The position numbers and the translations under genes are program-made. A stretch of DNA of 45,942 nucleotides from an uncultured Ruminococcus sp. (GTDB lineage: Bacteria; Bacillota; Clostridia; Oscillospirales; CAG-272), in contig CACZSC010000149.1 in assembly GCA_902783755.1 (NCBI GenBank), positions 1 through 45,942 on the forward strand, in the 5' to 3' direction. Below, one piece after another: positions 1,441 through 45,448 of the stretch (position 1 is its first letter; every line of letters begins with the position of its first letter). The notes below the pieces were generated by a model. The model was not told where the DNA came from. It saw only the letters and a program-made list of their open reading frames with translations, and ran no database searches.

Positions 1441-1998
1441 TTACTCCTTTGTTTCTATGACAACGAAGAACGGGCTGTCCGGAGAGTTAAGCATCTTGAT
1501 CTCCGCGATCCCGTATTCAAATCTGGAAAGAGTGCTGAAATATGCTTCCAGCTCCTTCCCCTCTTCAGCGCCTTCCGGATGGCCGGGGTAGACCGCAACC
1601 AGCAGTACCGCGTCCCTGTCGAGCATCGTCAGGGCTTTTTTCACAGCGGGAAGCGTGGTTGCTCTTTTTGTCGTGAGCGTCTTTCTCCCGGCTCCGGGCA
1701 GGTATCCGAGATTGAACATCCCCGCTTTGATCTTTTCTTTCACGTATTCGTCGGCCAGATCGTGGGATGCCTTTATCAGTTTCCAGTTTCCGGGGCATCC
1801 GGACTGTTTCAGGTTCCTCTCCGTGGAAACAAGGGCGTCTTCCTGTATGTCGAAGGCGTATACCCTTCCGGTCTCCCCCACCGTCTTGCTGAGGAACACC
1901 GTGTCATGCCCGTTTCCCATGGTAAAATCCACGGCACAGTCTCCCTCGCCCAGGTGGTCCAGTATGAACTTTTTCTGAAGCGACAGCAGATCCAGCAT
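1441..1998 (-). CDS. mnmM: YtqB/MnmM-family SAM-dependent methyltransferase (tRNA mnm5s2U34 methyltransferase type)
   Basis: This 185-aa ORF carries DFTMGNGHDTVFL, VYAFDIQ, FNLGYLPG and VYPGHPEG blocks that I recognise from Bacillus subtilis YtqB. Its ATG overlaps the iorB stop by 1 nt (TGATG). Confidence 0.75.
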   Translation of the reverse strand: MLDLLSLQKKFILDHLGEGDCAVDFTMGNGHDTVFLSKTVGETGRVYAFDIQEDALVSTERNLKQSGCPGNWKLIKASHDLADEYVKEKIKAGMFNLGYLPGAGRKTLTTKRATTLPAVKKALTMLDRDAVLLVAVYPGHPEGAEEGKELEAYFSTLSRFEYGIAEIKMLNSPDSPFFVVIETKE

Positions 1999-2591
1999 CA
2001 GTCTGCCTCTGCCAGAGCGACTCCCGCGTCATACGCGGCAAGATTGACGTCAAGCGCCTTCTGAGGGACACATGACGCCACCGCGGCTCTCAGGGTCCCG
2101 TTATCTATGCCCAGTGCTTTCTGAGCGAGCCCTATCAGAGCCACATTCGACGTCTTGGGATTGCCGACCTTCCTTGCTATGGACTCGGTATCGTAGGCTC
2201 TGATATCCACCCCGAGTCCCTTTATATTCTCCACTATGTTTTCAGGATACTCGGCAGCTCCCGTGATGACAGGCATGGGATTGATCTGCTGCAGGGACGT
2301 GATTATGACTCCGTCCGGTTTCAGGTTGGGCAGCCATCTTGCGGCCTCGAGCAGTTCGAATGATATGATGACGTCGCAGTCTCCCCTGCATATCACGGGA
2401 GAGTATACTTCTTCACCGTATCTGACATAGGTCACGACTGATCCGCCTCTCTGGGACATTCCGTGCACTTCCGATACTTTCACGTCGTATCCCTTGTCCA
2501 TTGCCGCTTTCCCGAGTATCTTCGACGCCAGCAGCGATCCCTGACCGCCAACGCCCACTATCATTATGTTCATATTACTCATATTGAGCAC
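1998..2591 (-). CDS. iorB: Indolepyruvate ferredoxin oxidoreductase, beta subunit
   Basis: This 197-aa ORF starts MNIMIVGVGGQGSLLASKILG and continues VHGMSQRGGSV, which is typical of the gamma-like domain of 2-oxoacid:ferredoxin oxidoreductases. It lies directly downstream of iorA. Confidence 0.85.
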   Translation of the reverse strand: MLNMSNMNIMIVGVGGQGSLLASKILGKAAMDKGYDVKVSEVHGMSQRGGSVVTYVRYGEEVYSPVICRGDCDVIISFELLEAARWLPNLKPDGVIITSLQQINPMPVITGAAEYPENIVENIKGLGVDIRAYDTESIARKVGNPKTSNVALIGLAQKALGIDNGTLRAAVASCVPQKALDVNLAAYDAGVALAEAD

Positions 2592-2601
2592 CCCCCTGAG
2601 C

Positions 2602-4332
2602 CTATCCTATCGCCGAAATACGGCACATCTGTTCGCACAGACCGCACCCCACGCATATGGATGCGTCGATCCTGGCCTTTTTATCCACCATTGAAATGCA
2701 CGGGCAGCCGATCTTCATGCAGCTTCTGCACCCGACGCATTTTCCGGTATCCACCTTGAGCGCGGGCTTCCTTACGGCTGTCTTAAGCAGGGCGCAGGGC
2801 CTTCTGCATATGATGACTGACGGGCACTCCGCCTTCACCTCTTCTTTGACAATGTCCTCCAGCGCCTTCAGATCCTGAGGATCCACCGCGCGAATATGCT
2901 CTCTCGGGACGCCGAGGGATGCGCATATGTCCTCGAGACAGAGGTTTGGCGCCGGATCCCCCATCAGGGTCTTTCCCGTAAGAGGGTTGTCCTGATGGCC
3001 CGTCATGCCCGTTATGCTGTTGTCAAGAATAAGGGTCGTGGTATTTCCTCCGTTGTACACAACATTGACGAGGCCGGTGAGTCCGCTGTGCATGAAGGTG
3101 GAATCACCTATCACCGATACCCATTTGTCCTCTTCTCCCCTGACCTTGCAGGCTCCGTGGAGCGATGATATGGAAGCGCCCATACAGTAGACCGTATCTA
3201 TGGCTGACAGAGGCGCCACCGCTCCCAGCGTATAGCAGCCTATGTCGCCGGACACATTGAGCTTCAGCTTTGCCAGAGTATAGAACACGCCCCTGTGGGG
3301 ACATCCCGGGCAGAGCACCGGAGGCCTCGGCGGTATGGGATCCGCCAGTTCGCAATGTGGTCTCTCATCGCCCAGCAGCCTCTCCCTGAGAAGCTCCTCG
3401 GAATACTCCCCGCACATGGGAAGGACTCCGTCCTGCTTTCCTATAACATTGATCCCGAGGGATCTGCAGTGCTCCTCTATGACAGGATCCAGTTCCTCTA
3501 CCACGATTATCATCTCGTGCTTTGAGGCAAAATCGAGTATAAGCTTTCTCGGCAGCGGATTCAGCATCCCCAGTTTCAGATAAGATGCCGTCTTCCCGTA
3601 CGCCTCTTTCGAATAGTTCCAGCAGTTACCTGCCGTTATGATCCCCAGCGCCGTTCCGTTTTCCTCCACCGTGTTGAACGGGCAGTCTTCCGCGTACTCG
3701 GCAAGAGCCGCCAGATGAGCTTCCACGTCGTAATGTCTGCGCTTGGCGTTCGCGGGCATCATGACATGCTTCGCAGCGTCCTTCACGTATGGTTTTACGG
3801 GGATCTCCTCCCTTTCGCCAAGCTCCACCGCAGACCTGCTGTGGCTGACACGGGTGGTAAGCCTGAAGATCACCGGAGTATCAAATCTCTCCGACAGCTC
3901 ATACGCTGCCTTAGCATAGTCCCTGCATTCCCGGGAATTCGCCGGTTCCAGCATCGGAAGCTTTGCGGCTCTGGCATAATGCCTGCTGTCCTGTTCGTTC
4001 TGGGACGAGTGCATCCCGGGGTCGTCCGCCACTCCTATGACCATACCGGCCGAAATGCCGGTATATGCCGTCACAAACAGGGGGTCTGCAGCCACGTTCA
4101 GGCCCACATGCTTCATCCCGCAGAAGGATCTTCCCCCTCCCACGGCCGCGCCCAGAGCAGCTTCAAGCGCAACCTTTTCGTTCGGTGCCCATTCGCTGTA
4201 TACTCCGTCATACAGGGCCGTGTTCTCTGTGATCTCGGTACTGGGAGTCCCGGGATAACTTGACACAAACCTGACGCCCGCCTCGTAAAGGCCTCTGGCC
4301 GCCGCTTCGTTTCCCAACATCAGTTTTCTCAT
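2602..4332 (-). CDS. iorA: Indolepyruvate ferredoxin oxidoreductase, alpha subunit (TPP-binding, two C-terminal 4Fe-4S motifs)
   Basis: This 576-aa ORF has the N-terminal MLGNEAAARGLYEAGV..SSYPGTPSTEI block, the TPP motif GDSTFMHSG..NSITGMTGHQ, and C-terminal CVGCRSCMKIGCPC and CVGCGLCEQMC clusters. Confidence 0.9.
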   Translation of the reverse strand: MRKLMLGNEAAARGLYEAGVRFVSSYPGTPSTEITENTALYDGVYSEWAPNEKVALEAALGAAVGGGRSFCGMKHVGLNVAADPLFVTAYTGISAGMVIGVADDPGMHSSQNEQDSRHYARAAKLPMLEPANSRECRDYAKAAYELSERFDTPVIFRLTTRVSHSRSAVELGEREEIPVKPYVKDAAKHVMMPANAKRRHYDVEAHLAALAEYAEDCPFNTVEENGTALGIITAGNCWNYSKEAYGKTASYLKLGMLNPLPRKLILDFASKHEMIIVVEELDPVIEEHCRSLGINVIGKQDGVLPMCGEYSEELLRERLLGDERPHCELADPIPPRPPVLCPGCPHRGVFYTLAKLKLNVSGDIGCYTLGAVAPLSAIDTVYCMGASISSLHGACKVRGEEDKWVSVIGDSTFMHSGLTGLVNVVYNGGNTTTLILDNSITGMTGHQDNPLTGKTLMGDPAPNLCLEDICASLGVPREHIRAVDPQDLKALEDIVKEEVKAECPSVIICRRPCALLKTAVRKPALKVDTGKCVGCRSCMKIGCPCISMVDKKARIDASICVGCGLCEQMCRISAIG

Positions 4333-34022: not shown

Positions 34023-35327
34023 ATGGAGCTTTACTACCAGAAAGAAATCGAGACGGCTTCCCCGGAGCAGATAAGGGAGTGGCAGAACGAACGGTTCCTC
34101 AACACGCTCGGGCACGTCTGGGAAAACAACAAGTACTACAAGAAGAAGATGCTCGAGAAGGGGGTCATCCCGGAGGACATCCACTCCATCGATGACATGT
34201 GGAAACTGCCCTATCTGACGAAAGACGATCTTAGGGAAGCATATCCCTACGGTCTCATGTCAGCCCCCCTTTCCGATTGCGTAAGGATCCAGTCCACCAG
34301 CGGGACCACCGGAAAGCGGGTCGTGGCGTTCTACACCAAAGAGGATATCGATCTCTGGGAGGACTGCTGTGCACGCGCCATAGTAGCCGCAGGCGGAACG
34401 AAAGAGGACGTGGTCCAGGTCTGCTACGGCTACGGCCTGTTCACCGGAGGAAACGGCCTTCACGGAGGATCACACAAAGTGGGCTGTCTTACTCTCCCCA
34501 TGTCATCCGGAAACACCGAGCGCCAGCTTCAGTTCATGGTCGACCTGGAGTCCACCATCCTCTGCTGTACTCCGTCATACGCGGCCTATCTGGCCGAATC
34601 CATCCATGAAAAGGGGATCAGGAACGACATAAAGCTCAAGGCCGGCATATTCGGCGCTGAAGCATGGACCGAGGAGATGCGGAAAGACATCGAATCAAGG
34701 CTCGGCATAAAGGCTTATGACATATACGGGCTTACCGAGCTTTCCGGCCCAGGCGTCGCATTCGAATGCTGCGAGCAGACCGGAATGCACATCAACGAGG
34801 ATCACTTTATAGTGGAGACCATAGACCCCGAGACCGGCAAGGTGCTTCCCGAAGGCGAAAAGGGCGAGCTTGTCTTCACCAGCATCACGAAGAGAGCCTT
34901 CCCTCTCCTCAGATACAGGACGAAGGACATCGCTGTCCTGAAGAGGGAGAAATGCTCCTGCGGCAGGACGTTCGTCAAGATGTCGAAGCCCATGGGAAGA
35001 AGCGACGACATGCTCATCATCAAGGGCGTCAACGTGTTCCCGTCACAGATCGAGACGGTCCTCCTGAACCAGGGGCTCACATCCAACTATCAGATAGTCG
35101 TCGACCGCGTGGGCACCACCGATTCCATCGAGATCAATGTTGAGATGACCCCCGAACTGTTCAGCGATACCATCAACACCATCGAGATAAGGGAGAGACA
35201 GATCACCGAGGCCATGAAATCCATGCTCGGGATATATGCGAAAGTATCGATAGTGGAACCCAAATCCATCATAAGAAGTGAAGGAAAAGCTGTCAGGGTG
35301 ATTGACAAAAGGAAGTTATACGGGTAA
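34023..35327 (+). CDS. paaK: Phenylacetate--CoA ligase family protein (PaaK-like adenylate-forming enzyme)
   Basis: This 434-aa ORF carries SPEQIREWQNERF, LPYLTKDDLREAYPYG, the AMP motif IQSTSGTTGKRVV, YGLTE, and C-terminal IIKGVNVFPSQIE. Confidence 0.85.
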   Translation: MELYYQKEIETASPEQIREWQNERFLNTLGHVWENNKYYKKKMLEKGVIPEDIHSIDDMWKLPYLTKDDLREAYPYGLMSAPLSDCVRIQSTSGTTGKRVVAFYTKEDIDLWEDCCARAIVAAGGTKEDVVQVCYGYGLFTGGNGLHGGSHKVGCLTLPMSSGNTERQLQFMVDLESTILCCTPSYAAYLAESIHEKGIRNDIKLKAGIFGAEAWTEEMRKDIESRLGIKAYDIYGLTELSGPGVAFECCEQTGMHINEDHFIVETIDPETGKVLPEGEKGELVFTSITKRAFPLLRYRTKDIAVLKREKCSCGRTFVKMSKPMGRSDDMLIIKGVNVFPSQIETVLLNQGLTSNYQIVVDRVGTTDSIEINVEMTPELFSDTINTIEIRERQITEAMKSMLGIYAKVSIVEPKSIIRSEGKAVRVIDKRKLYG

Positions 35328-35369: not shown

Positions 35370-35804
35370 ATGTCCGTCAGGCAGTTGTCTGTTTTTGCCG
35401 AAAACAAACAGGGGTCCCTCTACGAGACCACCGCGATCCTTTCCGACGCGGGAATAAACATAAGAGCTTTCAGCGTTGCTGACACAAACAGATACGGCGT
35501 TGTCCGGATGATAGTCGATGATCCGAGAGCCGCCGCCTTCGCCCTTTCCAGCGAAGGAAAGATAGTGAGCGTCACTGAAGTCGTCGGTGTCCAGATATCC
35601 GATTCCCAGGGCGGCCTTGCAAAACTCCTGGGCATCGTCTCCGGCGCGGGCATAAACGTCGAGTATCTGTACGCGTTCGTATCCTCCGTCCCGAACTGCG
35701 CAAACGTCGTGCTTCGTGTCTCTGACAATGAAGCCACTGAAAAAATCCTGAAGGACGCAGGTTATTCCCTGCTGACGGATGAGATAGCGAGAACCAAGAT
35801 ATAG
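35370..35804 (+). CDS. ACT domain-containing protein (tandem ACT, the usual partner of anaerobic paaK-like genes)
   Basis: This 144-aa ORF has two ACT-like halves, LSVFAENKQGSLYETTAILSDAGINIRAFSV and VGVQISDSQGGLAKLLGIVSGAGINVEYLYAF. The RBS GAGGAGGA lies upstream. Confidence 0.8.
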   Translation: MSVRQLSVFAENKQGSLYETTAILSDAGINIRAFSVADTNRYGVVRMIVDDPRAAAFALSSEGKIVSVTEVVGVQISDSQGGLAKLLGIVSGAGINVEYLYAFVSSVPNCANVVLRVSDNEATEKILKDAGYSLLTDEIARTKI

Positions 35805-36885: not shown

Positions 36886-36920
36886 GAGCTCAGGCATCAA
36901 ATTCAGCCTGAGCTCTTTTT
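36886..36920. terminator. Intrinsic terminator between the convergent zinc-ribbon and ligase-fusion genes
   Basis: GAGCTCAGGC (36886-36895) pairs with GCCTGAGCTC (36906-36915) across a 10-nt loop, followed by TTTTT. Confidence 0.8.
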
Positions 36921-39470
36921 CTATGCTGTGACTATCCCTGCCGCTTCCCTGAATTCGGGAAGCTTTTTCGCGTCGTCTCTCATCTTGTACTTGAGGATCT
37001 TGCCTGCTGCGTTCATCGGGAAACTGTCTACGAACACGACGTATTTCGGGGTTTTATGCTTGGCCATGTGTTCCCTAACATAATCCTTGATCTCGTCGGC
37101 CGTGCAGTCCTCGCCCGGTTTTTTAATGACGCAGGCCATTATCTCCTCTCCGTATGCCTTGTCCGGCACTCCTATAACCTGGACGTCCTGCACTTTCGGA
37201 TAAGTATAGATGAAGTCCTCTATCTCCTTCGGATATATGTTTTCTCCGCCCCGGATTATCATGTCCTTGATCCTCCCGGTAATCTTGTAGTTGCCGTCGG
37301 GAAGCCTTCTCGCAAGGTCTCCGGTATGGAGCCAGCCCTCCTTGTCTATAGCAACGGAAGTCGCCTCGGGCATCTTGTAGTATCCCTTCATTATGTTGTA
37401 TCCGCGAGCCACAAACTCGCCGTCCACGTTGTCCGGACAGTCCTCTCCAGTCTCGGGGTTGACTATCTTGCATTCCACTCCGAAGATGGCGGAACCGACG
37501 GTATTCACGCGGGTCTCTATGGAATCCGTGGTCTTTGACATCGTCGTGGCCGGAGACGCCTCGGTCTGGCCGTAGGTGATGCATATTTCCGACATATGCA
37601 TCTTTTCTATCACCTCTTCCATCACTTTGATGGGACATGGAGAACCGGCCATGATGCCCGTACGCATATGTGAAAAGTCAGTATCCTTGAATTTCTCATG
37701 GCCCAGCATGGCTATAAACATGGTAGGCACTCCGTGGAAGGCGGTGATCTTCTCCCTGTCGATGCACTCCAGCCCCAGTCTGGGCGAGAACGCCGGGATG
37801 GGCGACATGGTAACGCCGTGCGTCATCGATGCGGTCATCGCCAGCACCATGCCGAAGCAGTGGAACATCGGGACCTGGATCATCATTCTGTCCGCTGTAG
37901 ACAGATCCATGCAGTCACCTATGGCCTTGCCGTTGTTCACGACATTGTAGTGAGAGAGCATGACTCCCTTCGGGAATCCCGTCGTGCCGCTGGTATATTG
38001 CATGTTGCACACGTCATGCTTGTTGATCATCGCCGCTCTTCTGTACACCGCATCCATCGGAGTCCTCTGGGCCGCTTCTATCGCGTCCGCCCAGGTCAGA
38101 CATCCCTTGTGCTTGGATTCCACGGTTATGATGTTCCTCAAAAACGGAAGTCTTCTGCAGTGCAGCGGCTTCACCACTCCGTTTTCATCCTCGTTGTCCT
38201 TCAGCTCGGGAACTATCTCGTTCATGATCTTGACGTAATCTGAATCCTTGTATCCGTCCGTCATCACGAGGGTGTGGGTATCCGACTGTCTGAGCAGATA
38301 GTCCGCTTCGTGGACCTTGTATGCCGTGTTAACGGTCACCAGCACAGCGCCGATCCTTACTGTCGCCCAGAAAGTGATGAACCACTGGGGAACGTTGGTA
38401 GCCCAGATTGCGACATGGTCGCCCTGCTTCACGCCCAGTGAGATCAGCGAGCGTGCGAACAGATCCACGTCATCCCGGAATTCGCTCCATGTCCGCGTAT
38501 AGTCGCATGTCGTATACCGGAAGGCGTACCTTTCGGGGAACTCCTCCACCATGCGGTCCAGTACCTGCGGCATCGTCAGGTCTATGAGCTGTTCCTTCGG
38601 CCAGACGTAGTATCCCGCCCCTCTGTTGTCCGGGATCAGTCTGGCATTGCTCTCTGACACACCCAGATACAGGGACATGAAATGCGCGTAGTGTGGGAAC
38701 ACCACGCCCGGGTCTGAAAGATCAGGCGCGTACTGCTTCATCCACTCCAGCGATACGTATCCCTCGTAATTAAGAGACAGGAGCGCCTTCATATAGTCCG
38801 CCATCGGCGGCAGGTCTCCTTCTCCGACCAGCTTGTATATGAGCTTCCCGTCCTCCACTACGGAGTCCTTTATATGTATGTGCTTGATGTATGCTCCGAG
38901 ATTGTTTATGGTCGTCTGGGGCATCTCCCCGTTGAAGCGGAAAGGATGGTTGAAATCCCACAGGGCGGCCACATTGTCGCTCCCGACTCTTGCCAGGACG
39001 TCGGCAAGGCGGGCCGTATCGGAATAAACGCCGTTCGTCTCGAGAAGCAGGATCACTCCCGCCTGCTCGGCTATGGGAGCCAGTTCCTTCATCTGCTCCA
39101 CGACGAAATCGTCGTCGACCTGCATCTCAGGCTCAGCCGACGGTTCCCCGAGCACCCTGACGTAGGGCACGCCGAAAAAGCTGGCAAGCTCTATGTACCT
39201 GCAGATCTCCTTTCTGTTCTCTTCCCTCTTCTCCCTGTAACCCAGTGAGCACCCGGTGGAGAAGCAGCTGATCTCCAGCTTCTGCCTTTTCAGCTGATCC
39301 CTGGTCGCTTCGATGTTCTCGGGTTTGAAAGGCGAATTGTGCAGTTTGAAAATATCCTCTCCCGAGAGCCCCCTGATCTCGACCCCCTGGAATCCGAAGT
39401 CCTTGGCCATGGAGCATATGTCTATCCATGAAAAATCAGGACATCCCAATGTGGAAAATGAAATCTTCAT
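36921..39470 (-). CDS. Fusion protein: N-terminal xylose-isomerase-like TIM barrel (sugar-phosphate isomerase/epimerase fold) + C-terminal AMP-binding acyl-CoA synthetase
   Basis: This 849-aa ORF starts MKISFSTLGCPDFSW..GFQGVEIRG..VRVLG..LLLETNG..HIHIKD..YVSLEW (AP_endonuc_2/TIM-barrel pattern, ~aa 1-275). The adenylate-forming domain follows, with YTSGTTGFPKGVMLSH, YGQTE, GWLHTGDLA, GRIKDMIIRGGENIYP and GKILK. The RBS GGAGGG lies upstream. Confidence 0.8.
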   Translation of the reverse strand: MKISFSTLGCPDFSWIDICSMAKDFGFQGVEIRGLSGEDIFKLHNSPFKPENIEATRDQLKRQKLEISCFSTGCSLGYREKREENRKEICRYIELASFFGVPYVRVLGEPSAEPEMQVDDDFVVEQMKELAPIAEQAGVILLLETNGVYSDTARLADVLARVGSDNVAALWDFNHPFRFNGEMPQTTINNLGAYIKHIHIKDSVVEDGKLIYKLVGEGDLPPMADYMKALLSLNYEGYVSLEWMKQYAPDLSDPGVVFPHYAHFMSLYLGVSESNARLIPDNRGAGYYVWPKEQLIDLTMPQVLDRMVEEFPERYAFRYTTCDYTRTWSEFRDDVDLFARSLISLGVKQGDHVAIWATNVPQWFITFWATVRIGAVLVTVNTAYKVHEADYLLRQSDTHTLVMTDGYKDSDYVKIMNEIVPELKDNEDENGVVKPLHCRRLPFLRNIITVESKHKGCLTWADAIEAAQRTPMDAVYRRAAMINKHDVCNMQYTSGTTGFPKGVMLSHYNVVNNGKAIGDCMDLSTADRMMIQVPMFHCFGMVLAMTASMTHGVTMSPIPAFSPRLGLECIDREKITAFHGVPTMFIAMLGHEKFKDTDFSHMRTGIMAGSPCPIKVMEEVIEKMHMSEICITYGQTEASPATTMSKTTDSIETRVNTVGSAIFGVECKIVNPETGEDCPDNVDGEFVARGYNIMKGYYKMPEATSVAIDKEGWLHTGDLARRLPDGNYKITGRIKDMIIRGGENIYPKEIEDFIYTYPKVQDVQVIGVPDKAYGEEIMACVIKKPGEDCTADEIKDYVREHMAKHKTPKYVVFVDSFPMNAAGKILKYKMRDDAKKLPEFREAAGIVTA

Positions 39471-39482
39471 AAATCCCTCCGG

Positions 39483-39755
39483 AAAAACAAAAACACCGCT
39501 CGTCCCCTGTCCAAAGAGACGCGGTGCAAACCTCGTGGTACCACTCTTTTTCGATACTGATGTATCCTTTTCTCAGGCACGTTCCATGCCCTTCCGATAT
39601 AACGGTCGGTCCCGTCTGCATCTACTTTGCCTCCGGCATTTCGGACAGCCGCTGTGGAGTGAGTTATATACCGTTCGGATATTGCCTTTCACCTGCCGGC
39701 AACTCTCTGTGCATCTTCTCGGCTTTTATCTCCGTCATCGCGTTTTCCGCTATGC
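39483..39755 (-). promoter_or_regulatory. T-box riboswitch leader (minus strand) with terminator; candidate specifier CUC (Leu)
   Basis: On the minus strand the T-box motif is AGAGUGGUACCACGAGG (plus 39531-39546). The terminator pairs CACCGCGUC with GACGAGCGGUG (plus 39494-39526) and is followed by UUUUUGUUUUU. Stem I has GAUGA, AGAGA and a distal stem UUGCC/GGCAA with loop GGCAGGUGAAA. The 3' side of the specifier loop reads UAA-CUC-A-CUCC (CUC = plus 39661-39663). Confidence 0.75.
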
Positions 39756-39759
39756 GGAG

Positions 39760-39788
39760 ATTCTATCATGAATGTTTTGCCGTGTCAA
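39760..39788 (-). promoter_or_regulatory. Sigma-A promoter driving the minus-strand T-box leader
   Basis: On the minus strand: TTGACA (39788-39783), a 17-nt spacer, then TAGAAT (39765-39760) preceded by TG. Confidence 0.65.
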
Positions 39789-39884
39789 GTCAAACCGCAA
39801 AATTTCAGTTTTTCAGTTTTTCCGGTTTTATCCCCTGCTTCCGGGAACAGTTCACCAGATAAACATTTTTCGATATACAAAAGA

Positions 39885-39913
39885 TTGACACAAAAATTTT
39901 CAGATGATATAAT
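39885..39913 (+). promoter_or_regulatory. Consensus sigma-A promoter of the TerB/ATPase/helicase cassette
   Basis: TTGACA (39885-39890), a 17-nt spacer, then TATAAT (39908-39913) with TG at 39905-39906. Confidence 0.65.
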
Positions 39914-39951
39914 TATCTTTCAAGGTATTTTACGAAAAGGAGGCAATTGCC

Positions 39952-41826
39952 GTGGGAAACAGCGACGGATCCGCCCGCTCTCTTTCAGATATACTGACAG
40001 AACTTGAGAGCAGACTCAGTACGTGTACGCCCGAGGAAAAGCAGAAAGTTCTCGCGTCGATCACAAAAATCGCCGTGTCCCTAAATTCTGCCCGGACACA
40101 GCCCGTCCCCGAAGTCAGACCCGATATCCGGGATGACGGTTTCTGGCAGTTTGACCCGCCAAGGGAAAAGAAATACCGCAGACCGGATTTTGACACCCCG
40201 CCGGGTTCATATGACGTGAGCATCTCCGGATCACATGACCCTTCCCGCGCGCAGCAGCCCGAGCCAATACCCGCAAAAGGGACGCTCCCCGACGGAAACG
40301 TCCGGAAGCCGCTGTCAGATCACCAGACGATACCGTCCGATGCAGCGGATTCCGTCGTCAGAAAATACGGGTTTTCGCACGAAGGCCTGCTTTCCTACGT
40401 CACTGTAAGATCGAGAACGACAGACAATCTCTACAGTCACTTCTCCCGTGACGTAGCCCTGAGCCACCGTTCCGCTCCCGAATCTGAATTCCGCAGTCTC
40501 GCGCCAGTACCGTTCCAGTCATACGTGCCTCAGTTCTCGCACATGAGCAGCCAGCAGATCGAGTATTACAGAGCGTGGCGGGAAGAAGTCAGGAACGGAT
40601 CCTACCCCTCCTGCGACCTTTCATACATCATACTTTACATATACGAGATCATAAACCTGCCGGACATAATCCCTCCTCAGAAAGGCGTGAAGATCCTTTC
40701 TTCGCTGTGGATCGCCTACCGCGGAGCATACCCGAGGATCGACGGTTTTCTGGGAGAGTGGATGGCGGATTACTGCCTGATCCACGAAACCCCGCTGCCG
40801 AAGGCTCTTCTGCCGTATATCCCGCGGATCGTCCCCAAATCACAGTTCAAGGAATTCTACCTCCACCCCCTTCTCATCCTGGCCAGAAGCGAAGAAAAGA
40901 ACAATGTGTCCCTTTTCGGAAGGGCGGTCATGGAGACCCTTTCAGACTATGATTACACACAATCGAAATGCTACCTGCCCAACAGGGATTTTTACGATGC
41001 GGAATTGCCCTATCTTCTGGGCAAATTCATAACAAGAGCCGTCTCGGGCTCCATCCCTCCGCTCAGCCTTGACAGGGTTTATTCCCTGACGAGAGAAAGC
41101 TACAGCGGAGCCATAGTCTCCCCCGGCATAAAAATGCGGATCGATCTGAGTTTTCTTTCATTTTCCAGAAAAGCTGAATCACGCCAGGTGATCACTGCGG
41201 CTGTCAAGGAATGCGAAAACCGCATCAGATGTGTTCTCGGAATCAAATCCAAGCTGAAGACCGACCCGCTGCCTGCAGAGATCCAGTACAGTCTGACTGC
41301 GGCGCTGAATTCCGTTTATCCGCTGACTGCCCGCACCCAGAACCAGGAGCCCGACTACATGGAATACTATGAGCCTGAATCAACGGGATACGACTATGAT
41401 TCCGCCGCCGAGCTCGAGTATTCGTCCTGGACGAACACCGAACGCCTCACCGGCGAGGACCTGATCTCCCCGTCGCCGGAGGAATCTGCGGATGAAGATC
41501 TCCCTGTCGGGGCCATTGTATCGGCAGAGCCTGCCGCGGACACGGAGAGCAGCATGAGCGCCTCCGATTCCCCTGACGGCCGTATCACGGAGACCCGGGA
41601 TCAGGACATGACTGTAAAAGGCGCGGTACGCGCTGCGCTTGACGGCAGTTTCGCCCTGTTCTGCCGTGAAAACAGGCTGAACGAAGGAAATACGGCTGAC
41701 CTGGTAAACAGCCTGTTTCTTGACATACTCGGAGACGTGATCATAGAACCGGACGCCTCCGGAACATCATACAATCTTGTCGAAGATTACAGAAAGGATA
41801 TTGAAGAGTGGCTACTAACGTTCTGA
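39952..41826 (+). CDS. sngA: TerB-N / TerB-C domain protein (Shango SngA-like)
   Basis: This 624-aa ORF has a GTG start 8 nt after the RBS AAGGAGG. The central block QFSHMSSQQIEYYRAWREEVRNGSYPSCDLSYIILYIYEIINL matches the TerB-N signature as I remember it. The acidic linker is low-complexity. The C-terminal block ADLVNSLFLDILGDVIIEPD..YNLVEDYRKDIEEWL resembles TerB-C. Confidence 0.7.
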   Translation: MGNSDGSARSLSDILTELESRLSTCTPEEKQKVLASITKIAVSLNSARTQPVPEVRPDIRDDGFWQFDPPREKKYRRPDFDTPPGSYDVSISGSHDPSRAQQPEPIPAKGTLPDGNVRKPLSDHQTIPSDAADSVVRKYGFSHEGLLSYVTVRSRTTDNLYSHFSRDVALSHRSAPESEFRSLAPVPFQSYVPQFSHMSSQQIEYYRAWREEVRNGSYPSCDLSYIILYIYEIINLPDIIPPQKGVKILSSLWIAYRGAYPRIDGFLGEWMADYCLIHETPLPKALLPYIPRIVPKSQFKEFYLHPLLILARSEEKNNVSLFGRAVMETLSDYDYTQSKCYLPNRDFYDAELPYLLGKFITRAVSGSIPPLSLDRVYSLTRESYSGAIVSPGIKMRIDLSFLSFSRKAESRQVITAAVKECENRIRCVLGIKSKLKTDPLPAEIQYSLTAALNSVYPLTARTQNQEPDYMEYYEPESTGYDYDSAAELEYSSWTNTERLTGEDLISPSPEESADEDLPVGAIVSAEPAADTESSMSASDSPDGRITETRDQDMTVKGAVRAALDGSFALFCRENRLNEGNTADLVNSLFLDILGDVIIEPDASGTSYNLVEDYRKDIEEWLLTF

Positions 41827-43199
41827 ACCGGATACCCAAAAGGATCATGGGAACTCTGCTCTCATCCCTTTCCGGCGGAGTCGTCCCCAGGATGGGGGCT
41901 CCGTACATAGCTATCGGAAGAAAAGAAGAAATACAGGCGCTGGCCGACACTTTGGACCGGGTTGCCGAAGGAGAAGGAAGCACAAAATTCATCATCGGCA
42001 GGTACGGTTCCGGCAAAAGTTTCCTGATCCAGCTGGCCAGAGGATACGCGCTCGACAGAGGTTTCGTCACCGCGGACTGCGACCTTTCCCCCGAAAGGAA
42101 GCTGGCAGGCAGCGGGTTGTCCGGCCTGGCCACTTTCCGTGAGCTTATGAAAAATCTTGCGTGCAAGACTTCCCCCGACGGAGGAGCCCTGCCGGTCATC
42201 ATAGGCAAATGGTTCACTGGCATCGCCTCGGAACTGGAGGACGCAGGGTTTGACAGAAACCGTCAGGAATACTCCGACGAGTTCGCCAGAAGGATCTCGT
42301 CAAGCCTCCGGACGCTCGAATCGGATATAGGCGGTTTTGACTTTGCCGCGGTGATGAAGCAGTATTATACCGCATGGACCGAGGGCGATGACTCCAGACA
42401 GTCCGCGTGCCTGAAATGGCTGCGGGGAGAATATTCCACCCGTACCGAAGCCCGCCAGGGGCTTGACATCCGGTCCATCACGATCATCACAGACGACAAC
42501 TGGTATGATTATCTGAAGCTCTTCACTTCGTTCTTCAGACTGGTCGGATACAGCGGCTTCTGTCTCTACATAGACGAGTGCGTCAACCTGTACAAGATAC
42601 CGAACCGGATCTCCAGGGAGAACAACTACGAAAAGATCCTCTCAATGTTCAACGACACCATGCAGGGCAGAGCCCCGGGGCTGATGATCGTTTTCGGAGG
42701 CACCCCTCAGTTTCTCGAGGACACAAGGCGGGGACTGTACAGCTACGAGGCTCTCAGGAGCAGGCTGGCCGACGGAAGGTTCGGCGGCAGTGAATACCGT
42801 TCCCTCATGCAGCCGGTCATAAGGCTGAAACGCCTGTCCGACGCGGAGATGCTGGCGCTGATCATCAGGCTCACCTCCATCCACGGGGAATACCACGGCT
42901 GGACACCGAGGATCACGGAAGACGACATGAGCGACTTTCTGGCCACGTCTCTGAAGCGTGAGGGCGCAGAGACCATGATAACCCCCCGTGAAATAATACG
43001 CGACTACGTGACTCTTCTGGATCTGCTTTTCACCAATCCGAAGGCCACATATGCAGAGATCAAGAAAACGGCAGTCTCCGGGCCGCCGATCATTTCTTCC
43101 GAAAACGAAAATGACATTCCTGCAGGTCCGGTACCGCCGATACAGGCCACGGGCTCCCCGCAGTCCAGGCAGGTCACGCTGGACGATATAAAGTTCTGA
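41808..43199 (+). CDS. sngB: DUF2791-type (BREX BrxC/BrxD-related) P-loop ATPase (Shango SngB-like)
   Basis: This 463-aa ORF carries IAIGRKEE, Walker A FIIGRYGSGKSF (GGC at 41997) and Walker B-like GFCLYIDECVNL. The GTG start at 41808 overlaps sngA by 19 nt. The ATG at 41847 is an alternative, and neither has a strong RBS. Confidence 0.7.
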   Translation: MATNVLNRIPKRIMGTLLSSLSGGVVPRMGAPYIAIGRKEEIQALADTLDRVAEGEGSTKFIIGRYGSGKSFLIQLARGYALDRGFVTADCDLSPERKLAGSGLSGLATFRELMKNLACKTSPDGGALPVIIGKWFTGIASELEDAGFDRNRQEYSDEFARRISSSLRTLESDIGGFDFAAVMKQYYTAWTEGDDSRQSACLKWLRGEYSTRTEARQGLDIRSITIITDDNWYDYLKLFTSFFRLVGYSGFCLYIDECVNLYKIPNRISRENNYEKILSMFNDTMQGRAPGLMIVFGGTPQFLEDTRRGLYSYEALRSRLADGRFGGSEYRSLMQPVIRLKRLSDAEMLALIIRLTSIHGEYHGWTPRITEDDMSDFLATSLKREGAETMITPREIIRDYVTLLDLLFTNPKATYAEIKKTAVSGPPIISSENENDIPAGPVPPIQATGSPQSRQVTLDDIKF

Positions 43200-43219
43200 A
43201 TTAATCGAAAGGAACCGAC

Positions 43220-45448
43220 ATGTCTGTTTTTGAACTGTATTCACCATTCATCAGGGAATACATATATTCCCACGGCTGGGAAGCTCTCGGTCCCGTGCAG
43301 GTTGCCGCCGCACAGGAGATATTCTGCGGAAACAACAACCTTCTCCTTCACTCCCGGACCGCGTCCGGAAAGACCGAAGCTGCGTTTTTCCCCATCCTTT
43401 CCGAATTCTATGAAGACATGCCCACTACCTTCGGCGCCCTGTACATAGCGCCTCTCAAGTCCCTCATCAACGACCAATTCCTGAGGATAACCCAGGTCTG
43501 CGAAGACGCCGGAATCCCGGTGTTCCATTGGCACGGGGATGTTGCCCAGTCTCACAAGACGAAGGCTCTCGAGCATCCTTCGGGGATCCTGCAGATAACT
43601 CCGGAATCCCTCGAATCCATGCTCATGAACCGCTCTTCCGACCTGATACGGCTGTTCGGGGATCTGAGATATATAGTCATAGATGAGATCCACACCCTCA
43701 CCGGTACCGACCGGGGCAACCAGATCCTCTGCCTGCTTTCAAGGCTTCAGAGAAAGACCGGTGTATATCCCAGAAGGATCGGACTGTCCGCCACAGTGGG
43801 GGATGTCAAAAAAGCCGCAGGGTGGCTAGAGGCCGGGAGCGGCAGGGCCACGACCGTACCAGAAGTTCCGAAGACGGAGCTGCACTGGCGTCTCGGCATG
43901 GAACATTTCTACATAATGAGCAAGGATGTGGCTGCTCTTCCCTCCACGGAGATCGGGCAGTCGGATACCATGCACATGGATCTCGGCTATGAATATATCT
44001 ACGATTCCGCCGTGGGCAAGAAAGCCATCGTGTTCTCAAATTCGAGGGAAGAGACCGAATACGTCTGCGCCACGCTCCGTGAGATCGCAAGATACAGGGG
44101 AGAGCCGGATATATTCCTTATCCACCATGGGTTCCTTTCAGCGAGCATCAGGGAAGAAGCTGAGATGAAAATGAAAGACGACTCCATTCCCGCAGTCACC
44201 TGCGCTACGGTCACCATGGAACTCGGCATAGATATCGGAAGGCTTGAACGGATAATCCAGCAGGGCTCTCCGAATTCTGTGTCCTCATTCCTGCAGAGAC
44301 TCGGCAGAAGCGGAAGAAGAGGGGATCCGCCGGAAATGCTGATGGTGTTCAGGGAAGAAAATCCCCTGCCCAACGCACCTCTCCCGGAACTGATCCCCTG
44401 GGAGCTGCTCAAGGCTATTGCCATAGTGCAACTCTATATCGAAGAGCGCTTTATCGAACCTCCGGTGACAAAGAAGTGCCCCTTCTCACTCATGTTCCAT
44501 CAGACTCTTTCGATCATTGCTTCAAGCGGCGCTCTGTCCCCTGCCGCTCTTGCAGATATAGTCCTGAACCTTCCTCCGTTCGCCCTTGTGGACCGGGAGG
44601 ACTACAAGCTCCTTCTCGTGACGATGATAAATCACGACTGGCTGGAGCTCACAGAGAACGGTGAGCTCATAATAGGGCTGAGGGGCGAAAAACTCATAAA
44701 CTCGTTCAAATTCTATGCAGTTTTCAAGGATACGGAAGACTTTACCGTAAGATGTGAATCCGGCGAGATCGGCGTTATAACCACGCCCCCGCCTGTGGGA
44801 GACAGATTTGCTCTGGCCGGCCGGGTATGGCAGGTAGAGGAGCTCGATATCCCCCGCCACCTCATATACGTCAAACCGGTCGACGGAAAGATGGAAGTGA
44901 GCTGGCCGGGCGATTACGGCGAGGTCCACACCAGGATACTCGAACGCATGAAGCAGGTGCTCTGCGAAGACACTGAATATCCCTATCTCCACAAGCAGGC
45001 TCTCGAAAGGCTGCGCACGGCCCGCGCCGTTGCCCGCAACACCGGCATCTGCGACAAGCCCATCCTCCACCTCGGCGGATATACCTGGGCTCTCTTCCCC
45101 TGGCTCGGGACCCGCAGCTTCCGGACGCTCAGGAGATACGTCTCCAGATATGCAGGCAAATACAAACTGTCCGGAATGGAATATGAAGGCTGCTACTACA
45201 TGACCTTCAAGCTGGAGGGCGGGAGCGGCGTGAACATGCTCAGAGAGCTGTCGGACGGCATAATACGGAACGGAATAGACCTTTCCGCGCTGATCGGCCC
45301 TGCAGAAACGCCAGTATTTGAGAAATTCGACGAATTCCTTCCATCGGAACTTCTGAGGAAGGCATACATGGAAGACAAGCTGAGATCAGACGAGCTCGAC
45401 ATAAGAGCTCACGATTTTCTAAGAGAATTGGGTGAAAAAAATGCCTGA
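43220..45448 (+). CDS. sngC: Lhr-like DEAD/DEAH-box (SF2) helicase with a long C-terminal extension (Shango SngC-like)
   Basis: This 742-aa ORF has motif [13 protein letters not shown], Ia [25 protein letters not shown] and [11 protein letters not shown], followed by ~350 aa of C-terminal region. Confidence 0.8.

Follow-up and report, generated by a model that had tools for sequence, protein, structure and literature searches.

Of the T-box targets surveyed, 62% are tRNA ligases, 18% belong to biosynthesis, 12% are transporters and 8% fall elsewhere (PMC2494555). The closest described counterparts of the element reported here are the Leu T-boxes of leuS and the ilv-leu operon of Bacillus and Clostridia (RF00230), which carry a CUC specifier followed by a purine as well as a UGGU bulge, and in which an antiterminator competes with a terminator. 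We analyzed a stretch of 45,942 nucleotides (nt) from an uncultured Ruminococcus sp. (contig CACZSC010000149.1), hereafter the window, in which a minus-strand leader shows the same architecture, the same codon and bulge and the same competition between hairpins. It differs from the leuS and ilv-leu leaders in its target, which is not a tRNA ligase, biosynthetic operon or transporter but a single gene for a xylose-isomerase-like TIM barrel fused to an acyl-CoA ligase. Furthermore its kink-turn (K-turn) is mutated and its score lies under the gathering cut-off of the RNA family.

The first-pass annotation of the window had called this gene a non-canonical T-box target, in agreement with the surveyed target classes (PMC2494555). 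No acyl-CoA ligase was found among the targets in two T-box and RNA-regulon surveys, supplements included, and our literature search gave no report of a TIM::ligase fusion or of any acyl-CoA ligase under T-box control. As an RNA the riboswitch is ordinary; the class of gene that it regulates appears to be unreported. As a whole the locus is best explained by a Leu T-box acting on an acid-activating fusion enzyme that would serve leucine supply, with isovalerate as the favoured substrate, an explanation for which we judge the chances evenly balanced.

The T-box leader and its specifier

The leader is about 280 nt long and lies on the minus strand, as do all its features given below, between a promoter and the fusion gene. 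A covariance-model search of positions 39400-39900 with E-value thresholds matched it to Rfam RF00230 over the full length of the model (1-219/219, covering stem I, II, IIA/B, III and the antiterminator at 39512..39747) with 78 bits and an E-value of 2.7e-17. The leader of about 270 nt with stem I features and a T-box motif described earlier is thereby borne out. Stem I (39648..39745) contains the K-turn 5' half GAUGA, the AG bay AGAGA, the distal loop GGUGAAA and the specifier loop, and matches a hidden Markov model (HMM) of the family stem I with an E-value of 2.9e-12 (nhmmer). The T-box sequence AGAGUGGUACCACGAGG (39531..39547), with its UGGU bulge at 39543-39540, pairs as in RF00230. According to the structure line of the covariance model the antiterminator helix (39515..39547) is formed by AGAG, the bulge and ACGAG on one side and CGCGU and CUCU on the other.

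Aligning the leader to the covariance model had been proposed in the first-pass annotation as the way to settle a tentative specifier call, and the alignment indeed placed the Leu codon CUC at 39661..39663, with the conserved purine A at 39660. The specifier loop reads AUAA-CUC-A and is followed by CUCC, the 3' strand of the helix. Orthologous leaders were obtained from a scan in which each species was represented by a single genome and which confirmed 596 stretches encoding a relative; the comparative counts in this work rest on the best 80 of these 596 stretches, taken as species-level loci. Stem I HMM matches were found at 45 loci and in the window. In the specifier column of 45 aligned stem I sequences the codon was CUC in 41 cases and CUG in 4, both of which specify Leu. 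Reading the same column in the −1 frame gave a mixture of Thr, Ala, Ser and Pro and in the +1 frame a mixture of Ser and Trp, so a single amino acid was obtained only from the CUC/CUG frame. When 14 orthologous leaders were tested against RF00230, 8 passed the gathering score with 97-115 bits, and in these the specifier positions of the model were again occupied by CUC or CUG.

Other parts of the leader are conserved to a similar extent. The AG bay and distal loop of the window, ACAGAGAG and GGCAGGUGAAAGGC, align to AGAGA and GgUUGGUGaaA of RF00230 at positions that are invariant or nearly so in the stem I alignment of 45 leaders, and RNAalifold predicted 14 stem I pairs from these leaders, 13 of them with compensatory changes. 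The UGGU bulge is invariant among leaders with a T-box motif. Its pairing with a discriminator A fits bacterial tRNA-Leu without discriminating among tRNAs. A hairpin of −15 to −29 kcal/mol with a U-run follows the UGG by 7-26 nt in 45/45 T-box-motif leaders, which are those of the window and 44 loci. Leu specificity of the T-box is thus predicted about as securely as sequence analysis allows and is hardly in doubt.

In the window the intrinsic terminator is located at 39483..39527, with a stem at 39527-39493 and a U-run (U5GU5) at 39492-39483. It has a folding energy of −18.4 kcal/mol (z = −3.26), and none of 200 shuffled sequences folded as well. The 5' arm of the terminator includes the 3' strand of the antiterminator (39523-39515) and the two structures are therefore mutually exclusive. 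The terminator noted before the ATG was thus present, its distance from the start codon being 12 nt instead of the 13 nt originally given. Since the U-run ends 12 nt 5' of the ATG and the ribosome-binding site GGAGGG (39475..39480, read from the sequence) is not sequestered, the T-box is of the transcriptional type. A generic terminator scan of 39300-40000 gave no hit because the hairpin carries an internal bulge, and only direct folding revealed it. No tRNA genes were found in the window. Taken together, the leader is almost certainly a standard class-I transcriptional T-box riboswitch specific for tRNA-Leu.

The fusion protein, its distribution and its surroundings

The coding sequence downstream of the leader (36921..39470, minus strand, ATG at 39470) encodes 849 amino acids and combines PF01261 with PF00501 and PF13193, in line with the earlier description as a xylose-isomerase-like TIM barrel fused to an adenylate-forming ligase. 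The TIM barrel occupies residues 22-244 (38739..39407, minus strand) and matches PF01261 with 114.8 bits against a cut-off of 31.1. The ANL adenylate-forming ligase (36999..38558, minus strand) consists of an AMP-binding part at residues 305-698 (PF00501, 303 bits) and an AMP-binding_C part at residues 749-824 (PF13193, 69 bits), both above the Pfam cut-offs. Its ANL core motifs A3, A5 and A8 and the C-terminal A10 Lys are intact, as seen from YTSGTTGFPKG, YGQTE, GRIKDMIIRGGENIYP and PMNAAGK.

Residues E144, D172, H199 and E242 of the TIM domain, which by family knowledge we take to be putative metal ligands, are invariant in an alignment of fusion proteins (A1). The AlphaFold2 model of this domain has a predicted local distance difference test score of 91.3 with alternating strands and helices, and a Foldseek search against the PDB returned many members of the xylose-isomerase-like family with probability 1.0. 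These fold neighbours are generic, with template modelling (TM) scores of 0.70-0.77 and 15-21% identity, and all act on keto-sugars or cyclitols. No characterized subfamily was reached, whether fructoselysine 3-epimerase, hydroxypyruvate isomerase, IolE, IolO, psicose epimerase or AsbF, the best NCBIfam equivalog scoring 43.5 bits against a cut-off of 305. The TIM domain is probably catalytically active. The best sequence match in the PDB was AsbF (3dx5, E-value 6e-7). We rejected an assignment as an AsbF-like dehydroshikimate dehydratase since the similarity is weak and His144 of AsbF, presumably its catalytic residue, aligns with Asn146 of the TIM domain. The stand-alone TIM homologs P0236 and P0222 were of no use as functional clues, having neither an adjacent ligase nor a T-box and an uninformative context, and the apparent stand-alone homolog P0162 turned out to be a frameshift-fragmented fusion.

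The best NCBIfam match of the ligase domain was PRK12583 with 677.5 bits, followed by a family with 417 bits. Among proteins of solved structure, its best relatives are the synthetases of feruloyl-CoA and malonyl-CoA. When 1.84 billion representative proteins were searched exhaustively, the nearest stand-alone ligases had 52% identity and bore uninformative source names. Database entries of the fusion family itself read simply "AMP-binding protein" or "fatty-acyl-CoA synthase". These nearest stand-alone ligases were found in an Atu/Liu cluster, beside an E2-type acyltransferase, beside a PaaK-like ligase, in tandem with a second ligase and in an archaeal-lipid-like context, one case each. The Atu/Liu-like cluster (L087:1-11701) holds a 46%-identical ligase together with genes for a thiolase, a short-chain dehydrogenase/reductase, an acyl-CoA dehydrogenase, AtuA and a carboxyltransferase. 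Pathways of the Atu/Liu type handle methyl-branched acids and isovalerate. Stand-alone catalytic domains of 2-oxoacid dehydrogenase E2-type acyltransferases (PF00198), with the DHR motif and without a lipoyl domain, lie directly 3' of a distant fusion paralog (L093:2690-3700) and of the nearest stand-alone ligase (L085:6847-7815); they are 51% identical to each other, and no T-box was found at either locus. The distant fusion paralogs P0241 and P0249 had been considered as carriers of T-boxes with Ile or Val specifiers, which would have favoured a family devoted to branched-chain acids; this was ruled out as neither has a T-box.

A survey of the distribution of the fusion had been recommended in the earlier work. 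All 80 loci encode the full-length fusion, with 65-81% identity, and 44 of them carry UGGUACC(A/G)CG within 480 nt 5' of the start codon. Two more have a decayed leader. Clustering of the full-length fusion homologs at 90% identity yields over 120 clusters, with identities of 73-100%. Most of the 80 loci come from metagenome-assembled genomes of rumen, gut and digester Clostridia; named carriers include Anaerobacterium chartisolvens, Pelotomaculum propionicicum (L052) and a Dehalobacter. In a neighbour-joining tree the proteins with a T-box are scattered over nearly all clades, which suggests that the association of T-box and fusion is old and was repeatedly lost. Upstream spacers at the loci without a T-box are mostly short, and an Rfam search upstream of six such orthologs gave no known RNA element at E ≤ 0.01.

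Some individual loci deviate in organization. At L066:2768-3437 the Leu T-box is followed by a small membrane open reading frame of about 100 amino acids and then by the fusion gene. A cobalamin riboswitch lies directly 3' of the fusion gene at L021:6609-6798, and a thiamine pyrophosphate riboswitch is found in the flank of another locus (L011:8694-8801, minus strand). In a low-quality assembly (L084:6001-8534) the fusion is divided over three open reading frames, corresponding to the TIM domain and the N-terminal and C-terminal parts of the AMP-binding region, which looks like frameshift fragmentation and not a natural split.

The promoter of the window leader (39760..39788, minus strand) is of the sigma-70 type and combines a −35 element TTGACA (39788-39783), a 17-nt spacer and a TG-extended −10 element TAGAAT (39765-39760). 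It agrees with the consensus at 11 of 12 positions, bears out the consensus promoter noted earlier, and is kept in L095, a relative with 96% protein identity. The region contained 5 promoter-like sites where 1.0 was expected. A GC-rich hairpin, GAGCUCAGGC...GCCUGAGCUC, read from the sequence at 36886..36915 with no strand assigned, lies just 3' of the stop codon. Beyond it a convergent gene for a zinc-ribbon membrane protein is located on the plus strand. The fusion gene is therefore monocistronic, consistent with the single downstream gene described earlier, and the hairpin at 36915-36886 probably acts as a bidirectional terminator common to both genes.

Several neighbouring genes of the window were also identified. 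Divergent to the T-box promoter, a promoter with a perfect consensus (TTGACA-17-TATAAT, 39885-39913) heads a unit at 39885-45448 (plus strand) that encodes a TerB_N protein, a BrxC/BrxD-family ATPase and a DEAD/Helicase_C protein; L095 has the same neighbours, and the unit is probably a phage-defence island. On the other side, a PaaK-like phenylacetate-CoA ligase (34023-35327, plus strand; AMP-binding and AMP-binding_C_2) and an ACT-domain protein (35370-35804, plus strand) converge on the fusion gene at a distance of about 1 kb, a synteny found in L095 and not kept across species. Farther away, 2602-4332 (minus strand) encodes the alpha subunit of an indolepyruvate-type 2-oxoacid:ferredoxin oxidoreductase (POR_N, TPP_enzyme_C and Fer4), with the likely beta subunit downstream at 1998-2591 (minus strand). 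The presence of the POR_N alpha subunit shows that the organism possesses this enzyme class, which serves reductive carboxylation of acyl-CoAs.

Proposed role and alternative explanations

For the mode of regulation we adopted the charged and uncharged switching steps of the established T-box mechanism. The CUC specifier would pair with the anticodon GAG and the UGGU bulge with the acceptor end ACCA of tRNA-Leu. With charged tRNA-Leu the terminator at 39527-39483 would form and transcription would stop 12 nt 5' of the ATG, while uncharged tRNA-Leu would stabilize the antiterminator and allow read-through, the enzyme being made only under leucine shortage. The enzyme would then add to or spare the leucine pool by converting a carboxylic acid to its thioester. 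A role in leucine supply or sparing through acid activation is, on balance, rather probable. In a more specific scheme exogenous isovalerate, the most likely substrate, would be converted to isovaleryl-CoA, which would undergo reductive carboxylation to 2-oxoisocaproate and transamination to leucine. We hold this specific scheme tentatively, with the balance tilted somewhat against it.

Carboxylation of isovalerate requires its CoA thioester, and cellulolytic species need branched-chain volatile fatty acids. Synthesis of leucine by isovalerate carboxylation is established in rumen bacteria (Allison 1962, 1966, in the account given in PMC7356843). The route has been known through labelling work from the 1960s, and no gene for its activation step was found in the papers searched. 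Because this carboxylation is established in rumen bacteria and depends on the thioester, isovalerate is the most economical candidate substrate. The regulatory logic, a Leu T-box with induction by uncharged tRNA-Leu, fits this reading, and so do the rumen, gut and anaerobic digester habitats of the carriers. The closeness of the ligase domain to PRK12583 and the placement of a 46%-identical stand-alone homolog in an Atu/Liu-type cluster for branched acids point the same way. Gene neighbourhoods provided hints of a similar kind. A CitMHS anion/carboxylate transporter gene lies 81-168 nt 3' of the fusion gene on the same strand at two sister loci (L025:6612-7937 and L047:5022-6287) and a 4HBT thioesterase gene 20 nt 3' of it at L048:6551-6973. 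They may share a Leu T-box-controlled transcript with the fusion gene and are suggestive of isovalerate activation, but the observation is anecdotal. All-against-all clustering of open reading frames gave no neighbour common to more than 4 of the 80 loci, and the Pfam assignments of 20 co-directional downstream genes were heterogeneous.

A number of observations weigh against an isovalerate-activating enzyme under Leu T-box control. Of the 80 fusion orthologs 34 lack any T-box, and a link to genes for 2-oxoacid:ferredoxin oxidoreductase, to ilvE or to leu genes was not conserved in the 80 neighbourhoods. With 677 bits against a cut-off of 832 the ligase domain is not a member of PRK12583, its sequence does not reveal a substrate, and the nearest stand-alone ligases sit in the heterogeneous gene contexts described above. 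The isovalerate scheme needs no TIM step, yet the TIM domain is always fused and its tetrad is intact. The window leader itself stays under the RF00230 gathering score, and the GA to CA change in its K-turn may cause this copy to regulate poorly. Four other explanations were considered.

According to one of these, the ligase would spare leucine by making acyl-CoA primers from exogenous branched acids for branched fatty acids or plasmalogens, so that under leucine shortage leucine need not be degraded to isovaleryl-CoA. A functional analogue would be the methylbutyryl-CoA synthetase MbcS of Staphylococcus aureus, which shows that fatty acid synthesis can draw on 2-methylbutyrate and isobutyrate from outside the cell through a dedicated ANL ligase (PMC10026030, PMC11167679). 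The logic of a Leu T-box fits such an MbcS-like role as well as it fits leucine synthesis, and the fusion gene stands alone, unlinked to amino-acid genes. However, MbcS handles isovalerate poorly (PMC10026030), no fab or pls genes were found nearby in the 80 neighbourhoods, and the TIM domain is again left unexplained. We regard this explanation as improbable.

The TIM domain would find a use if it were a metal-dependent isomerase, epimerase or dehydratase that makes an acid from a keto or hydroxy precursor, after which the ligase would activate that acid in a leucine-related pathway other than the isovalerate route. The strict conservation of the fusion with its intact E-D-H-E tetrad supports such a two-step route, as does the finding that the TIM subfamily matches no characterized equivalog (43 bits vs 305) and has fold neighbours that all act on keto-sugars or cyclitols. 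A TIM dehydratase that works with an ANL enzyme is known in the pair AsbF and AsbC. The E2-type acyltransferases beside a distant fusion paralog and a stand-alone ligase suggest that an acyl-CoA is passed to an acceptor. Against this route, there is no known precursor of the leucine skeleton for TIM-type chemistry, the stand-alone TIM homologs are neither beside ligases nor under T-boxes, and the position of His144 in AsbF is taken by Asn146 in the fusion. It too has a low probability.

A third explanation concerns the window strain only, in which a decaying riboswitch, impaired in tRNA docking by the K-turn mutation, would mostly terminate or misrespond. Whereas the 5' half of the K-turn, GAUGA, is present, the 3' half has CA for GA (ACAGC, 39651..39655, minus strand), so the non-canonical ACA reported earlier is real; 42 of 45 leaders have GAGC here. 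In L095, with the same synteny as the window, the K-turn is the canonical GGAGC, while the leader is otherwise 88% identical to that of the window and has the same CUC-A. Because this 96%-identical relative keeps GGAGC, the change in the window is recent and confined to this strain, and part of the low score of 78 bits, the lowest seen, is due to it. Since the curated gathering score of RF00230 is 93 bits, a scan of the whole window at Rfam gathering thresholds gave zero matches and thus missed the T-box. Decay does occur in this leader family, given that the leaders at L038:3578-4003 and L078:3119-3407 retain stem I with CUC, a stem IIA/B-like element and a terminator hairpin with U-run and have lost the UGGUACC bulge; to judge from these remnants they are apparently decayed or variant T-boxes. 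In the window, however, specifier, AG bay, distal loop, bulge, antiterminator, terminator and promoter are all intact, as is the fusion gene, of which 100%-identical copies exist on other contigs. K-turn variants are also carried by L030 and L035. Some accepted T-boxes lack the K-turn GA motif, and we therefore treat the K-turn as typical and not as strictly defining. Overall, decay in this strain has only a slim chance of being the correct explanation.

A general starvation response, with leucine as a proxy signal for an ordinary CoA ligase that acts on medium- or long-chain fatty acids and whose substrate is unrelated to leucine, would suit the NCBIfam and source annotations as fatty-acid CoA ligase, the approximately 8% of T-boxes that precede genes without an obvious amino-acid tie (PMC2494555) and the 34 orthologs without T-box. 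Against it, the Leu specifier is kept in 45/45 leaders across deep divergence, synonymous exchange of CUC for CUG included, where a mere proxy should have drifted towards other amino acids, and T-box specificity matched target function where known (PMC2494555). We consider this explanation very improbable.

Significance and relation to known systems

Through the Leu T-box a widespread enzyme family carries an inbuilt pointer to its function, which offers a robust lead through guilt by regulation. The retention of the T-box specificity across deep divergence predicts a direct role of the enzyme in leucine supply. The fusion gene is a concrete candidate for the isovalerate-to-leucine physiology of rumen and gut anaerobes, and if the TIM domain is catalytic, new chemistry is possible. 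A bolder proposal casts the fusion as the leucine-regulated entry enzyme that the isovalerate route of rumen and gut Clostridia has so far lacked or, more radically, has TIM domain and ligase form a new two-step leucine pathway; it seems to us rather unlikely. Since the T-box of the window was missed at the gathering threshold, regulon surveys that use the Rfam gathering cut-off will under-count such leaders.

With respect to the enzyme, the fusion can be compared with several described systems. MbcS of Staphylococcus aureus, compared here by its description, is likewise an ANL ligase, one that makes CoA thioesters of exogenous short branched-chain acids (PMC10026030). Unlike the fusion it is a single-domain protein with no reported T-box, it prefers 2-methylbutyrate and isobutyrate, and its products feed lipid synthesis (PMC10026030). 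The PRK12583 family of fatty-acid CoA ligases, by far the best family match of the fusion ligase with a score below the family cut-off, includes ligases found in Atu/Liu clusters. This family is presumably ACSF2/YngI-like, and we know of no member that is fused to a TIM barrel.

The TIM domain also has relatives with a defined function. Petrobactin synthesis pairs the TIM enzyme AsbF, a 3-dehydroshikimate dehydratase, with the ANL adenylating enzyme AsbC, a combination that resembles the two halves of the fusion. However, AsbF and AsbC are separate proteins of a siderophore pathway with no link to leucine, and AsbF shares only about 20% identity with the TIM domain, in which its His144 is replaced by Asn. 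D-psicose 3-epimerase, IolI, UlaE and further xylose-isomerase-like TIM enzymes have the same fold (TM 0.70-0.77) and the same E-D-H-E spacing as the fusion TIM domain, but they are only 15-21% identical to it, act on sugar substrates and none of them is fused to a ligase.

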